Shown: positions 27,170 to 34,623 of the stretch, piece after piece
How the letters are laid out: every line of letters begins with the position of its first letter
Numbering within the stretch: position 1 is the first letter of the stretch
Assembly: GCF_055900595.2 (NCBI RefSeq)
Contig: NZ_CM148325.1
Reading direction: 5' to 3' (one strand)
DNA: 64,000 bases
The notes under the pieces: model-generated
Database searches by the model: none
What the model saw: only the letters and a program-made list of their open reading frames with translations
What the model was told of the DNA's origin: nothing
Translations under genes and position numbers: made by a program

Positions 27170-28180
27170 TCAGTGCTGCCGCAAAAAGTCTTCAATGTCA
27201 GTCAGTGAGGATACCCCTTCCATCGGACCTTGTCGCATTACGGCGAGCGCGCCGCTGGCATTTGCATATTGCAGCGCCTTGTGTGCCGGGATACCGGATA
27301 AGAAAAGAGTGACAAACGTTGCGCCAAAGCAGTCGCCTGCACCCGTTGGATCGATTATTTCGATATCGTGGCCTGCAACATGCTGGGCGTGTAATGTTCC
27401 GTTTTTAAGCTTGTAATAGCTGGCCCCACGCTGGGCGCGTTTTATCGCCACATGTTTTACGCCGCCGTGGAGAAGATCGCTAACAATCTGTTCTTCTGAC
27501 AGATTTTTGTGACGCGCGAAGAAAGGGAGTTCGCTTTCGCTGGGGATAAAAATATCCGTATATTCAATCAAATAATCGAGAGCCTGCGCCATTTCAGGAA
27601 TACTCAGCATCTCTTTGCGAATATTGGGATCGAAAGAAACGGTGCCGCCAGCCGATTTGATCGTCGTTATTGCTTTACGCATGACATCGATCATGCGAAA
27701 TGAGAACAATGATGAGCCCACAATATGCAGATGGTTACACTGTTTTAGCAGATCCTTATCAATGTGCTCGGCAGTAAACAAACCGCAGGCGCTGTTAGGG
27801 ATATTAAAGACGAAATCCCGCTGCTGGGGATTTTGATAACTCACGAATGCCGTACCTGTTACGGCATTGTTCATAACATGGATCCCATCGGTAATGACAC
27901 CTTCATGACGGAGGCGCTCTATAATGAGTCGGCCAAAATCATCATTACCAACACATCCGAAGAAGATGGCCCGATGGGACAGTTTTGCCACCTGAGCAGC
28001 AAAAATTGCTGGTGCACCGCTGGGAAATGGCCCGATAAACTCCCCAGGCTGAGTGAATTTTTGATGTGGGTTGCGGGACAAAAACTCGGCCAGCAATTCG
28101 CCCATAGCGCAGATAGTTATTGTCACAAAACCCCTCTCATTCCTGAAGCCTTTCGCGATTGGACCAGGTAAAGCACTCAT
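27170..28180 (-). CDS. PfkB-family carbohydrate kinase (island kinase A)
   Basis: 336-aa ORF; PfkB signature DPTGAGDCFG and the GG dipeptide region; paralogous to 33661-34623; true start may lie at an internal GTG or ATG 18-25 codons downstream (alignment with the paralog starts near TITICAMGELL). Confidence 0.85.
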   Translation of the reverse strand: MSALPGPIAKGFRNERGFVTITICAMGELLAEFLSRNPHQKFTQPGEFIGPFPSGAPAIFAAQVAKLSHRAIFFGCVGNDDFGRLIIERLRHEGVITDGIHVMNNAVTGTAFVSYQNPQQRDFVFNIPNSACGLFTAEHIDKDLLKQCNHLHIVGSSLFSFRMIDVMRKAITTIKSAGGTVSFDPNIRKEMLSIPEMAQALDYLIEYTDIFIPSESELPFFARHKNLSEEQIVSDLLHGGVKHVAIKRAQRGASYYKLKNGTLHAQHVAGHDIEIIDPTGAGDCFGATFVTLFLSGIPAHKALQYANASGALAVMRQGPMEGVSSLTDIEDFLRQH

Positions 28181-28967
28181 TACTGGTATAAAGGATAACG
28201 AAATCAGCCGACTGCAATTGTTGCTGATATTGTTCGTTAATGCTGCGGCTGACGATCACATTTTCTGCCTGATGCAAATGTCCAATGGCAGCCGTTGATG
28301 GCGCAGGATCGGCGGCAACGATAACTGTCTTATTCTGGGCATGATCGAAACAGAGCTGCCAGGCAGCGGCAAGTCTGGGAACGTTGATATTTAAAGTACC
28401 ATCAGCATCCAGATGGCTGATTTCCAGAATGCTGTGTGTAATGGTGAAATGCTGAAGTGCCTGTTCGAGCGGTTTTCCGGCCAGTGCGGTGTCGGGGCGC
28501 AGCATTTCACTGCCAGCCAGTATTATTTCGCCATCAATAAACTGATTTGCCAGCAGCGCATGTTCGGGATCGTTGGTGATCAGACGCAGTTTTTTCACTT
28601 CGCTGAGCAATGGAATGATCTTACGGCAGATTGTCCCATGTCCAAGAAATAGCGTGTCACGATCGCGAATTAACCGTGCGCAATGTCGTGCTATTTCCAT
28701 TTGTTGTGCCAGAGACAATGGCGCGATCGGTTGTATCGCTTCTGGTTCAGAGGAGAGGGGGGTCGCAATAGCACCGCCAAATGATCGCTTTAAATATCCC
28801 TGTTGCTCCAGATAACTGAGATCGCCGCGGATCGTCACGCCAGAGACACCAAGTTGCGCAGATAAGTCATCAACTTTGATTTCACCCTGGGCGGCAACAA
28901 TTTCTGCAATTTTTAATCTGCGTTTCAGTAGGTTAGACGATTTTCTCGGCACGTTAACACTCTTCAT
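28137..28967 (-). CDS. DeoR-family transcriptional regulator
   Basis: 276 aa; N-terminal DeoR-type winged HTH (RRLKIAEIVAAQGEIKVDDLSAQLGVSGVTIRGDLSYLEQQGYL), C-terminal sugar-phosphate-binding-like domain; upstream of kinase A and divergent from the aldolase-transporter operon. Confidence 0.85.
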   Translation of the reverse strand: MKSVNVPRKSSNLLKRRLKIAEIVAAQGEIKVDDLSAQLGVSGVTIRGDLSYLEQQGYLKRSFGGAIATPLSSEPEAIQPIAPLSLAQQMEIARHCARLIRDRDTLFLGHGTICRKIIPLLSEVKKLRLITNDPEHALLANQFIDGEIILAGSEMLRPDTALAGKPLEQALQHFTITHSILEISHLDADGTLNINVPRLAAAWQLCFDHAQNKTVIVAADPAPSTAAIGHLHQAENVIVSRSINEQYQQQLQSADFVILYTSNECFTWSNRERLQE

Positions 28968-29308
28968 TGGCCTTTAATGCGTAACACTATAGCCCCTTGT
29001 ATTTTTCTTTGAAAGTTATCCTTCAATAATATCGACAATTCGAAAAGGAAATCATGGGCCAGAAATCGCAACGAAAATAGCTTAATGCATTGAAAAATAG
29101 ATGAATTAATTCATATTTATGCAGAGGTGTTATTGGTTTCACTTGCAAAGTGAAAAACAAATTAAGTTATTTTTTGTAAGTTATTTTGATGATATTCGAC
29201 ATGTATCACGCTTTTTACCGCTTTTGCTGTGCTAGTTTGCTTTCAAAATGAAAGTGAAGATTCTCTTTCTTCATTTTGTAAGGTGAACGACAAATATCAG
29301 GAGCTGCG

Positions 29309-32649: not shown

Positions 32650-33639
32650 ATGACAGAGAAAACTCTTGCCAGTCCGAAACCTTCGGAAATTCCCATTGCA
32701 AATAATTTTAAAAAAGTCTTCAGGCAATATGGCGGTATCCTCAGTGGAATGGTGGTGTTAATCATTCTGTTCAGTCTTATTAATGACAGTTTTTTTACTG
32801 CCAATAACATTACTAATATTATTCTTCAGGTTTCGATAATTGCAATTACCGCCTATGGAATGACTTATGTACTTTTGCTTGGCGATATTGATTTATCAGT
32901 CGGTTCAACCATTGCATTGATTGGCACATTTGCTGCGCTTGGGGCTTCATGGGGAATTCCATTTATTTTATTGGTCCCATTATCCATTATTGCAGCCCTG
33001 GCTCTGGGGATGATAAATGGTGGCTTGACGGCTATAGCGGGTATCCCTTCGTTTATTGTCACCGTTGCTACAATGGGGATCTTCCGTGGTATCGCTTATA
33101 TAGTGACCGATGGTATGCCCATCATGATTAAAGATGATGCCTTTCTGGCGCTGGGGAATGGAGAATTTCTCTATATACCTATTCCTATCTGGATATTAAT
33201 CATCTTATTGCTGATTAACCACTTCATTCTTACTAAAACAACCTTTGGACGAAAAATTTATATCACTGGTGGTAATAAAGAAGCGGCAGTTTATTCAGGG
33301 ATAAATGTCACCCGCTTGAAAATTAAAGTCTTTATGATTACTGCAGTGCTGGCAGGTATCAGCGGGATGATCCTCGCCTCACGCCTCTATTCCGGGCAAC
33401 CGAATTCCGCGTTGAGCTACGAACTGGATGCTATTGCCGCGGCTGTACTGGGAGGCACCAGCCTGAACGGCGGCTATGGAACGGTGGTGGGGACGGTAAT
33501 CGGGGCATTAACCATCGGCGTTATTAATAATGGCATGAACTTAATGAACGTTCCCTATTTCTATCAGATGGTGGTTAAAGGATTAGTCATTCTTGTAGCC
33601 GTTTATTTTGACGTAAGAAATAAAAGAAAACGTAGCTAA
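32650..33639 (+). CDS. sugar ABC transporter permease (RbsC-like)
   Basis: 329-aa hydrophobic multi-pass protein; the ATG directly abuts the ATPase stop (TAAATG). Confidence 0.88.
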   Translation: MTEKTLASPKPSEIPIANNFKKVFRQYGGILSGMVVLIILFSLINDSFFTANNITNIILQVSIIAITAYGMTYVLLLGDIDLSVGSTIALIGTFAALGASWGIPFILLVPLSIIAALALGMINGGLTAIAGIPSFIVTVATMGIFRGIAYIVTDGMPIMIKDDAFLALGNGEFLYIPIPIWILIILLLINHFILTKTTFGRKIYITGGNKEAAVYSGINVTRLKIKVFMITAVLAGISGMILASRLYSGQPNSALSYELDAIAAAVLGGTSLNGGYGTVVGTVIGALTIGVINNGMNLMNVPYFYQMVVKGLVILVAVYFDVRNKRKRS

Positions 33640-33660
33640 TCATTTCAAGGAATTAATTAT

Positions 33661-34623
33661 ATGAGTAAGGTCTTCACAATTGGAGAAATTCTGGTTGAAA
33701 TTATGGCGAGTAAAATCGGCCAGCCATTTGATCAACCAGGTATCTGGAACGGCCCTTATCCCAGTGGTGCGCCCGCTATTTTTATCGACCAGGTGACACG
33801 TCTTGGTGTTCCGTGCGGCATCATTAGCTGTGTGGGGAATGATGGCTTTGGTGATATTAATATACATCGTCTGGCTGCTGATGGTGTGGATATCAGGGGG
33901 ATTTCAGTCTTACCTCTGGAAGCCACCGGGAGTGCCTTTGTTACTTATCATAACTCTGGCGATCGCGATTTTATTTTTAATATCAAGAATGCCGCTTGCG
34001 GTAAATTATCGGCGCAGCATGTTGATGAAAATATACTGAAAGACTGTACCCATTTTCATATTATGGGCTCATCCCTGTTTTCATTTCATATGGTAGACGC
34101 AGTAAAAAAAGCAGTAACCATCGTTAAAGCAAATGGTGGCGTTATTTCTTTCGACCCGAATATTCGTAAAGAGATGCTCGATATTCCAGAAATGCGTGAC
34201 GCCCTCCACTTTGTTCTTGAGTTAACAGATATCTATATGCCCAGCGAGGGAGAAGTGTTGCTCTTGTCGCCACACTCGACACCGGAGCGTGCAATCGCTG
34301 GTTTTCTTGAAGAAGGTGTTAAAGAGGTGATTGTGAAGCGCGGCAATCAAGGTGCCAGTTACTACTCCGCGAATGAGCAGTTTCATGTTGAGAGCTATCC
34401 GGTGGAAGAAGTTGACCCGACCGGTGCGGGAGACTGCTTTGGTGGCGCGTGGATTGCCTGCCGCCAGCTAGGGTTTGACGCCCATCGGGCATTACAATAT
34501 GCCAACGCCTGCGGTGCACTGGCGGTAACCCGACGTGGCCCAATGGAGGGAACGTCTCGCCTTGCGGAAATCGAAGCGTTCATCCAGCGCCATGACATGT
34601 CCATTCGGGAAGCAGCACAATGA
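33661..34623 (+). CDS. PfkB-family carbohydrate kinase (island kinase B)
   Basis: 320 aa; DPTGAGDCFG signature; shares long identical stretches with kinase A (PYPSGAPAIF, GSSLFSF, SFDPNIRKEML, ALQYANA, GPMEG). Confidence 0.9.
   Translation: MSKVFTIGEILVEIMASKIGQPFDQPGIWNGPYPSGAPAIFIDQVTRLGVPCGIISCVGNDGFGDINIHRLAADGVDIRGISVLPLEATGSAFVTYHNSGDRDFIFNIKNAACGKLSAQHVDENILKDCTHFHIMGSSLFSFHMVDAVKKAVTIVKANGGVISFDPNIRKEMLDIPEMRDALHFVLELTDIYMPSEGEVLLLSPHSTPERAIAGFLEEGVKEVIVKRGNQGASYYSANEQFHVESYPVEEVDPTGAGDCFGGAWIACRQLGFDAHRALQYANACGALAVTRRGPMEGTSRLAEIEAFIQRHDMSIREAAQ

Follow-up and report, generated by a model that had tools for sequence, protein, structure and literature searches.

Two PfkB-family kinases in the D-tagatose utilisation island of Escherichia coli

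Organisation and identity of the island

The window analysed here, a 64,000-nucleotide stretch of contig NZ_CM148325.1 (RefSeq assembly GCF_055900595.2), contains an 8.5 kb block of genes located between yhdT (26835–27095, minus strand) and accC (35758–37146, minus strand), as seen from its open reading frames (ORFs) and from the RefSeq annotation of a 99.9%-identical genome. The minus strand of the block encodes a sugar kinase (kinase A) and a DeoR-family regulator, and the plus strand encodes an aldolase, a substrate-binding protein, an ATPase, a permease, a second sugar kinase (kinase B) and an epimerase-like protein. The block is the published D-tagatose utilisation (tag) island of Escherichia coli, and the paralogy of its two kinases is already known. 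In island-free E. coli, yhdT and accC are adjacent, and a 9 kb query including both kinases and the flanks matches there by its flanks alone. Our account combines the identity of the island, its pathway, its mosaic origin and the linkage of tagK, the gene of kinase A, to the regulator; taken as a whole, it is probably right.

In E. coli Nissle 1917 (EcN), the island occupies the accC-yhdT site and comprises eight genes over 8.5 kb, arranged in two divergent operons 341 bp apart (PMC9720028, PMC12226905). The operons are tagK-tagR and, running in the opposite direction, tagYABCDE (Ha et al. 2022, iScience, PMC9720028; Park et al. 2025, Microb Cell Fact, PMC12226905), and 51% identity between its two "sugar kinases", with genes of 963 and 936 bp, was already reported (PMC9720028, PMC12226905). 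The window shares with EcN the yhdT/accC flanks, the eight genes in equal order and orientation, and the 341-bp intergenic region, and the two loci are colinear with 96.9% nucleotide identity over 8.66 kb. The island proteins are 96.9–99.4% identical to their EcN counterparts (tagK 97.8%, tagR 99.3% and tagD 99.4%). The window allele differs from that of EcN by about 3% of nucleotides overall and by about 5% in tagY and tagA. The complete genome nearest to the window island is that of the dog isolate Z0117EC0005, with 99.9% identity.

The minus-strand operon starts with tagR (28137–28967), which encodes the DeoR-family repressor of the tag operon. Its best match among the DeoR-family models of NCBIfam is AgaR (105.6 bits, below the cut-off), and no relative was found in the PDB at E <= 1e-5. 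The second gene, tagK (27170–28126, minus strand), is the orthologue of EcN HW372_RS02435 / ECOLIN_RS18705 and encodes kinase A, a PfkB sugar kinase with a predicted function, belonging to a TagR-linked subfamily termed A-type below. The promoter Preg (28986–29013, minus strand; TTCAAA - 16 nt - TATAGT) was located by a consensus scan and is identical to the published Preg in both hexamers and spacing. Promoter and terminator consensus scans of the window did not rise above shuffled expectation overall, and the only match used from them is the one coinciding with the published Preg.

The other regulatory elements of EcN are also present in the intergenic region. The published CRP site (TTCGA-N6-TCACG, 29195–29210) and the promoter Ptag together span 29195–29238 on the plus strand, as matched to the published elements (PMC12226905); Ptag has a -35 element TTTTTA at 29212–29217, which reads TTTTTG in EcN, and a -10 element TAGTTT at 29233–29238. 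The operator tagO1 (29240–29258, plus strand; CTTTCAAAATGAAAGTGAA) contains the core palindrome ACTTTCA-N3-TGAAAGT, overlaps the transcription start site (TSS) of the tag operon and differs from its published counterpart at one position. The operator tagO2 (29264–29282, minus strand; CTTACAAAATGAAGAAAGA) is identical to the published one. Differential RNA sequencing (dRNA-seq) of EcN found two TSSs in the island and no more, with the Preg TSS 11 nt upstream of the tagR start; TagR acts as a repressor at tagO1 and tagO2, and induction is about 2-fold for tagRK versus >40- to >1000-fold for tagYABCDE (PMC12226905). A preliminary description of the locus placed one kinase in a transcript with the regulator and the other in a transcript with the transporter and aldolase genes, and both the gene layout and the two-TSS map (PMC12226905) bear this out.

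The plus-strand operon begins with tagY (29309–30163), a class II tagatose-1,6-bisphosphate aldolase gene whose product scores 472.7 bits against NCBIfam TIGR01858, above the cut-off of 443.55. It is followed by the genes of a D-tagatose ATP-binding cassette (ABC) importer (30199–33639), namely tagA for the substrate-binding protein (30199–31089), tagB for the ATPase (31150–32649) and tagC for the permease (32650–33639). TagABC resemble ribose/arabinose/xylose-type ABC components in NCBIfam, with every score below its cut-off, and the importer function was established by cluster deletion and complementation (PMC9720028). Next is tagD (33661–34623), which encodes kinase B, the D-tagatose kinase converting tagatose to tagatose 6-phosphate, and is the orthologue of EcN HW372_RS02465 / ECOLIN_RS18675. 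The last gene, tagE (34620–35666), overlaps tagD by 4 nt and is assigned to the aldose-1-epimerase-family / PF14486 proteins from its ORF and RefSeq name.

The published evidence for the pathway is genetic and not from enzyme assays. An in-frame deletion of tagD renders EcN unable to use tagatose (Tag-), with no tagatose consumed, and the six-gene operon tagYABCDE alone, without tagK, enables K-12, B and W strains to grow on tagatose (PMC9720028). A K-12 strain with a pfkA deletion and the tag operon is Tag- (PMC9720028), and therefore PfkA performs the conversion of tagatose 6-phosphate to the 1,6-bisphosphate. By this genetic evidence, TagABC imports free D-tagatose, TagD phosphorylates it to tagatose 6-phosphate, the housekeeping PfkA adds the second phosphate, and TagY splits tagatose 1,6-bisphosphate into dihydroxyacetone phosphate and glyceraldehyde 3-phosphate, with TagR repressing the operon at tagO1/tagO2.

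The two kinases and their gene contexts

The kinase ORFs, at 27170–28180 (minus strand) and 33661–34623 (plus strand), encode proteins identical at 157 of 311 aligned positions (50%; BLASTP, E = 1e-114). Pfam PF00294 is assigned, in precomputed form, to the cluster representatives P0001 (98% identical to kinase A) and P0121 (99% identical to kinase B), and the PDB homologues of both kinases are all PfkB kinases. The pair of inverted PfkB kinases sharing sequence blocks, as first described, is thus real, with one correction to the blocks. GSSLFSF, SFDPNIRKEML, DPTGAGDCFG, ALQYANA and GPMEG occur in both proteins, but PYPSGAPAIF is exact in kinase B only and reads PFPSGAPAIF in kinase A. The two genes are 58.8% identical in nucleotides, their third-codon-position identity is 39%, and their longest common exact run is 11 nt. 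The low third-position identity and the short exact run indicate an old divergence, in line with the phylogeny below and with the preliminary view that the duplication is not recent.

The longest ORF of kinase A starts at 28180, which puts its first 44 nt within the regulator gene. A GTG at 28126, 10 nt downstream of the tagR stop, has GAGGGG 4 nt upstream and gives a product of 318 aa. This is the length of the representative of a 2662-member cluster, and the N-terminus fits every A-type homologue (M-x-x-x-I-C/A-T-[MIL]-GELL); the GTG and its context are also present in EcN tagK. The RefSeq start, an ATG at 28105 (311 aa), would drop the first beta-strand of the fold. The true tagK start is therefore likely GTG 28126, and the RefSeq start is probably mis-annotated.

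The inverted kinase genes had also been proposed as recombination substrates that flip the 5.5 kb segment between them, and the geometry of two homologous genes in inverted orientation is the sole point in favour of this. RecA-dependent recombination needs roughly 25 nt of identity, a length that the 11 nt run shared by the two genes does not approach. The search for inverted repeats between the two genes found none that is long or in register beyond 11 nt, and neither the ORFs nor the RefSeq annotation of the island include a recombinase gene; homologous or site-specific inversion is thus not credible, and it would break both genes and both operons. The distribution of the island agrees with this. 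The interior (28200–33600) is found at >=80% coverage in 1419 of the 5426 complete E. coli genomes, and the whole 9 kb query is found as a single colinear place, again at >=80% coverage, in 1419 genomes too. Since an inversion would break up the 9 kb match, with no single place covering more than about 60% of it, the equal counts indicate that no complete genome is inverted, provided that the two sets of 1419, which were compared by count and assumed to be the same, do coincide. We give inversion practically no credence; the inverted orientation reflects the divergent operons and has no recombinational role.

Neighbour-joining trees with bootstrap were built from 44 representatives, at first unrooted and then with three PDB-derived outgroups. 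The unrooted tree separates an A side from a B side with 100% support. The B side contains the enterobacterial orthologues of kinase B together with beta-, alpha- and gamma-proteobacterial proteins named tagatose kinase. On the A side, kinase A belongs to a clade (94%) with proteins from Klebsiella huaxiensis, Yersinia, Serratia, Sodalis and others, its sister (80%) is a clade (100%) from Klebsiella pneumoniae, Salmonella, Cedecea, Rahnella and others, and a further clade (100%) is formed by Gilliamella, Orbus and Zophobihabitans. With the outgroups added, the A side is monophyletic at 99%, the B side at 71% and the ingroup at 98%. Kinase A thus falls outside the tagatose-kinase clade and in the 99%-supported sister clade. 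By this placement, kinases A and B belong to two old sister subfamilies of one TagK-like PfkB clade, and no duplication inside the island gave rise to them.

Kinase B is TagD, the D-tagatose kinase shown genetically in EcN. It groups with proteins named tagatose kinase from Caballeronia, Paraburkholderia, Pseudoalteromonas and Alteromonas (100% support) and is about 58–61% identical to such proteins. Two crystal structures, 3IQ0 and 3K9E, entered in the PDB under the name "putative ribokinase II", differ from it at two aligned positions and the initiator Met. The NCBIfam model TagKinase (NF049991) has a cut-off of 420 bits, which kinase B misses marginally (414.2) and kinase A by far (346.6). 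Because this cut-off is missed, the function of kinase B is assigned from the deletion published for its 99.4%-identical counterpart in EcN; the score of TagD just below the cut-off probably explains its RefSeq name "sugar kinase". The ratio of nonsynonymous to synonymous substitution rates (dN/dS) of tagD versus strain UTI89 is 0.03.

The neighbourhoods of A-type kinases were sampled in six contexts, from E. coli, Yersinia, Klebsiella, Salmonella, Gilliamella and Rahnella. In all six, the A-type kinase starts 0–11 nt from the stop of a DeoR gene, and every context examined is a tagatose-type cluster containing a GatY-like aldolase and a tagatose phosphotransferase system (PTS) or ABC transporter. 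The cluster of Yersinia pseudotuberculosis is of the same ABC type and includes both kinases, without the epimerase-like gene. In K. pneumoniae, Salmonella enterica, Gilliamella apicola and Rahnella, the DeoR-A-type kinase pair is divergent from the GatY-like aldolase gene; after the latter come a PfkB kinase resembling 1-phosphofructokinase (1-PFK-like) and fructose-family PTS genes. These PTS-type clusters (in Salmonella, the STM3253-3256 region) share with the island the aldolase divergent from a TagR-like DeoR-A-type kinase pair, but have the fructose-family PTS and a 1-PFK-like tagatose-1-phosphate kinase in place of the ABC importer and TagD, and no B-type kinase. A search of the literature on the Salmonella neighbours STM3251/STM3252 yielded two incidental mentions and nothing on function, and a Salmonella diet paper (PMC7972205) contains nothing on the A-type kinase.

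The regulatory sites are also shared. A palindrome, ACTTTCA-N3-TGAAAGT, was derived from words common to the divergent intergenic regions. Its best match in the window, with one mismatch, is at 29239–29255 and corresponds to the published tagO1. At <=2 mismatches, the loci of about 19 kb from Yersinia, Klebsiella, Salmonella and Gilliamella contain it solely in their divergent intergenic regions. This result is supporting and not independent proof, since the palindrome comes from the same sequences that were searched. A version with a 4-nt spacer has no match in the intergenic region, the correct spacing being 3 nt, and a window-wide search with a single half-site gave 15 matches against 14 expected, hence no enrichment, with 3 of the 15 in the 341-bp intergenic region. 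The shared sites fit one orthologous TagR regulon across the ABC- and PTS-type clusters. In addition, the Caballeronia locus contains weak CTTTCG-N3-CGAAAC palindromes (four mismatches each) at its positions 8057 and 11365, upstream of deoR and of the ABC genes, and this operator type may extend to beta-proteobacterial clusters.

The island aldolase is 69–71% identical to those of Klebsiella and Salmonella, and TagR is 41–42% identical to the Klebsiella/Salmonella DeoR proteins versus 34% to the Caballeronia regulator. The alpha- and beta-proteobacterial ABC-type tagatose/galactitol clusters, by comparison, contain the clade of kinase B (100% bootstrap) and are likewise ABC-importer- and DeoR-linked; according to Ha et al. 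(2022, PMC9720028), a tagatose kinase of the NF049991 type has been reported from Sinorhizobium meliloti and Agrobacterium tumefaciens. The Caballeronia cluster runs from deoR through a B-type tagK and a gatZ-like epimerase gene to the ABC transporter. Clusters of this type carry a GatZ/KbaZ-like tagatose-6-phosphate epimerase, whereas the E. coli island has an aldolase, reliance on PfkA and the PF14486 protein at that place. Because contexts and identities split in this way between a PTS-type core and ABC/B-type clusters, the island looks like a mosaic, in which an enterobacterial aldolase/TagR/kinase A core would have been joined by an ABC-importer/TagD module replacing the PTS and the tagatose-1-phosphate kinase. 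The Pseudoalteromonas cluster also has two TagK-family kinases, at 8001–8945 and 11714–12664 of that locus, which are 46% identical. One is behind a DeoR gene, and the second, beside a GatZ-like gene, falls outside both the A and B sides; the two-kinase design therefore recurs.

Predicted role of TagK

The function of tagK was called unexplored by the EcN authors (PMC12226905). In a family alignment of 231 members, 80 positions are conserved at >=95% on both the A and B sides, including the catalytic GAGD (G255-A256-G257-D258), E9, E13, G36-A37 and the DPN-R loop. The contacts to fructose in the Vibrio cholerae fructokinase, D26/D30/G45/A46/R176/D266/F113, correspond to E9/E13/G36/A37/R169/D258/F104 here and are all conserved, as mapped by HMMER alignment from the published contacts (PMC6240065). 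Nine positions are specific to one side and mostly hydrophobic (I10L, I14F, M15L, I42A, I55F, K149R, L202F, E222H and C267L), the charged differences of kinase A being limited to R150 for K149 and H225 for E222. Since its sugar-contact and catalytic residues are all shared with TagD, TagK probably functions as an active ketohexose kinase whose chemistry resembles that of TagD, and not as a tagatose-6-phosphate 1-kinase or a dead sensor, and it probably acts, like TagD, on O6 of tagatofuranose. Its dN/dS of 0.11 between the window and UTI89 points to purifying selection on tagK. A ketohexokinase-like role as a tagatose 1-kinase was set aside, the fructokinase-type O6-oriented contacts all being conserved, although the sequence alone is not decisive on this point.

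The preliminary description suggested a two-step phosphorylation, for example by a 6-kinase and then a 1-kinase. In the version considered here, kinase B would make tagatose 6-phosphate and kinase A would be a dedicated tagatose-6-phosphate 1-kinase feeding the aldolase. The island does encode a bisphosphate aldolase and no other candidate for the second step, and the evidence that pfkA is required comes solely from K-12 with a six-gene plasmid lacking kinase A. The second step is performed by PfkA in that background, however, and the six-gene operon is sufficient without kinase A (PMC9720028), which disfavours the proposal. With the hexose-phosphate kinase model TIGR03168, which has a cut-off of 216.4 bits, kinase A reaches 49.8 bits and kinase B 46.0, whereas kinase A reaches 346.6 with TagKinase. 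BLASTP of kinase A against the 1-PFK-like kinases of the Klebsiella, Salmonella and Gilliamella clusters gave no match at E <= 1e-5, the 231-member alignment shows no subfamily-specific cluster of added basic residues in kinase A, and the TagD contacts are kept. Moreover, the A-type kinases of Gilliamella and Rahnella coexist with a 1-PFK-like kinase without a route to tagatose 6-phosphate, and tagK is induced only about 2-fold. In Salmonella, deletion of STM3254, which encodes the 1-PFK-like kinase and is reported to be essential for galactitol use, gives no growth on tagatose (PMC7972205), despite the A-type kinase in the Salmonella cluster examined here. A dedicated 1-kinase role is thus highly unlikely.

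A different substrate has a low but appreciable probability. Kinase A would then phosphorylate another ketohexose (D-psicose, D- or L-sorbose, or D-fructose), widening the feed to the aldolase or serving a second inducer. Growth on tagatose requires kinase B even when kinase A is present (PMC9720028), kinase A is well below the TagKinase cut-off, the two subfamilies have long been separate, and four of the nine positions fixed differently lie beside sugar-binding residues. The first-shell sugar contacts are identical, however, and among the contexts examined A-type kinases occur solely in tagatose-type clusters. Weak expression would explain the failure to replace TagD equally well.

One of the two kinases had alternatively been suggested to act mainly as a sensor or partner of the DeoR regulator, the one reading of the preliminary description that is still of interest. 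The association with the regulator gene holds in 6/6 A-type contexts, but a purely sensory role does not agree with the intact catalytic residues. As a mainly non-catalytic co-regulator, kinase A would contact TagR directly. The invariant regulator-kinase pair speaks for this, as does the 0–11 nt spacing, which suggests translational coupling and matched stoichiometry. The PfkB kinase FruK is reported to interact with the regulator Cra. Against it, the catalytic and the nucleotide- and sugar-binding motifs are conserved at >=95% on the A side, including the GAGD Asp and the DPN-R loop, and this conservation indicates selection for catalysis; the dN/dS of 0.11 points the same way. A non-catalytic partnership is accordingly improbable.

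Kinase A could, finally, be a redundant leftover of the ancestral cluster, without a specific role in E. coli and heading for loss. It is dispensable when the operon is expressed, it is weakly expressed, its dN/dS exceeds that of tagD (0.11 vs 0.03), and besides the pseudogenes annotated in S88 and H252 there are truncated protein clusters (P0009, 298 aa; P0116, 189 aa). The great majority of copies are intact, however, as in the 2662-member full-length cluster; all motifs and the position are kept across Enterobacterales and Orbales, and dN/dS is well below 1. We regard this explanation as rather unlikely.

The reading we favour, still as a tentative possibility, is that TagK has a regulator-linked, inducer-forming (priming) role. 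TagK would be expressed weakly and almost constitutively together with TagR and would carry no catabolic flux. It would make a phosphosugar, presumably tagatose 6-phosphate, which would release TagR while the TagD-bearing operon is still shut. We favour this role because the kinase is inseparable from the repressor gene, its expression is weak and near-constitutive, and the tagD deletion is Tag-. The layout is the one expected of an inducer-forming kinase, as tagR-tagK lies on a single TSS, divergent from the importer/catabolic operon, and six taxa share this arrangement. Repressors of the DeoR family usually sense phosphorylated intermediates. In a broader form, which we consider possible but doubtful, the A-type kinases and TagR would constitute a conserved sensory module, in which a kinase translationally coupled to the repressor converts trace free tagatose into the true TagR inducer, whether uptake is by ABC transporter or PTS.

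A similar gene layout is known from the lsrRK/lsrACDBFG system for autoinducer-2 uptake in E. coli, where a repressor and a kinase are co-transcribed and divergent from an ABC-importer/catabolic operon, and the product of LsrK is the ligand releasing LsrR. The resemblance is a lead, not a test. LsrK belongs to the FGGY kinases and is the sole kinase of that system, and LsrR is of the SorC type, whereas TagK is a PfkB-type kinase beside a second kinase, TagD, and TagR belongs to the DeoR family.

Several points weigh against a priming role. The substrate of TagK, its regiochemistry and the inducer are all inferred, and the model of Park et al., stated as a working hypothesis, has free D-tagatose and no phosphosugar as the TagR ligand (PMC12226905). 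The tagD deletion strain consumed no tagatose (PMC9720028), and therefore the flux through TagK is either very small or TagK acts on something else. In the PTS-type clusters, tagatose enters as tagatose 1-phosphate, leaving no obvious substrate for a kinase of free tagatose. In S88 and H252, tagK is annotated as a pseudogene and hence is dispensable in some lineages (PMC9720028). In addition, the side-specific residues I10L, I14F, M15L and I42A flank the sugar-binding glutamates and could alter specificity, and the trees are neighbour-joining trees of about 45 sequences with distant outgroups.

Further features of the island and significance

The gap between tagA and tagB contains a stem-loop with a 15-bp stem (31104–31136, plus strand), found by repeat search and RNA folding; the fold of 31085–31155 has an energy of -22.6 kcal/mol (z = -4.2). 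This hairpin may stabilise the upstream transcript or attenuate read-through to yield an excess of binding protein. A second, G+C-rich hairpin, GCCGGGC...GCCCGGC, is located at 35681–35710 between the convergent ends of tagE and accC. It was listed by the scan as a minus-strand terminator-like site and may terminate both transcripts.

TagE has no NCBIfam match, and its PF14486 assignment rests on the fused gene call P0122. The gene is missing from the otherwise complete Yersinia cluster, and its slot is that of the GatZ-like tagatose-6-phosphate epimerase in Caballeronia and Pseudoalteromonas. Its dN/dS of 0.38 is the highest in the island, though calculated from few substitutions. Tagatose is mostly a pyranose in solution, and 6-phosphorylation needs furanose tagatose, so TagE may be a tagatose mutarotase/pyranase.

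The divergence within the island is uneven. TagY and tagA differ from the EcN and UTI89 alleles by about 5.3% of nucleotides and the remaining island by 2–3%, and the synonymous divergence of tagY is 0.20 versus 0.03–0.12 elsewhere, which suggests allelic recombination inside the island. The search with the island interior also reported two places on plasmids, and a 66 kb E. coli plasmid record (NZ_JBTZOT010000002.1, 57221–58154) contains a tagY-like aldolase segment with 86.7% identity. A related cluster may thus be plasmid-borne.

The island enables E. coli to grow on the food sweetener D-tagatose. It is found mainly in the phylogroups B2 and F, which include many extraintestinal pathogens and the probiotic Nissle 1917, and it is the basis of a published tagatose-inducible expression system. 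What is added here is modest, namely the split into two kinase subfamilies, a TagR-kinase module common to ABC and PTS clusters, the conserved operator, the conservation of the pocket and a likely correction of the tagK start. Our comparison also highlights that an experimentally supported tagatose kinase is still labelled "sugar kinase" in RefSeq and "putative ribokinase II" in the PDB. If TagK does make the inducer, the free-tagatose model of the expression system would be incomplete, and tagK would be a necessary part for moving the tagatose switch into other strains. Such a role would also account for the retention of a second TagK-family kinase beside the repressor in many tagatose clusters.

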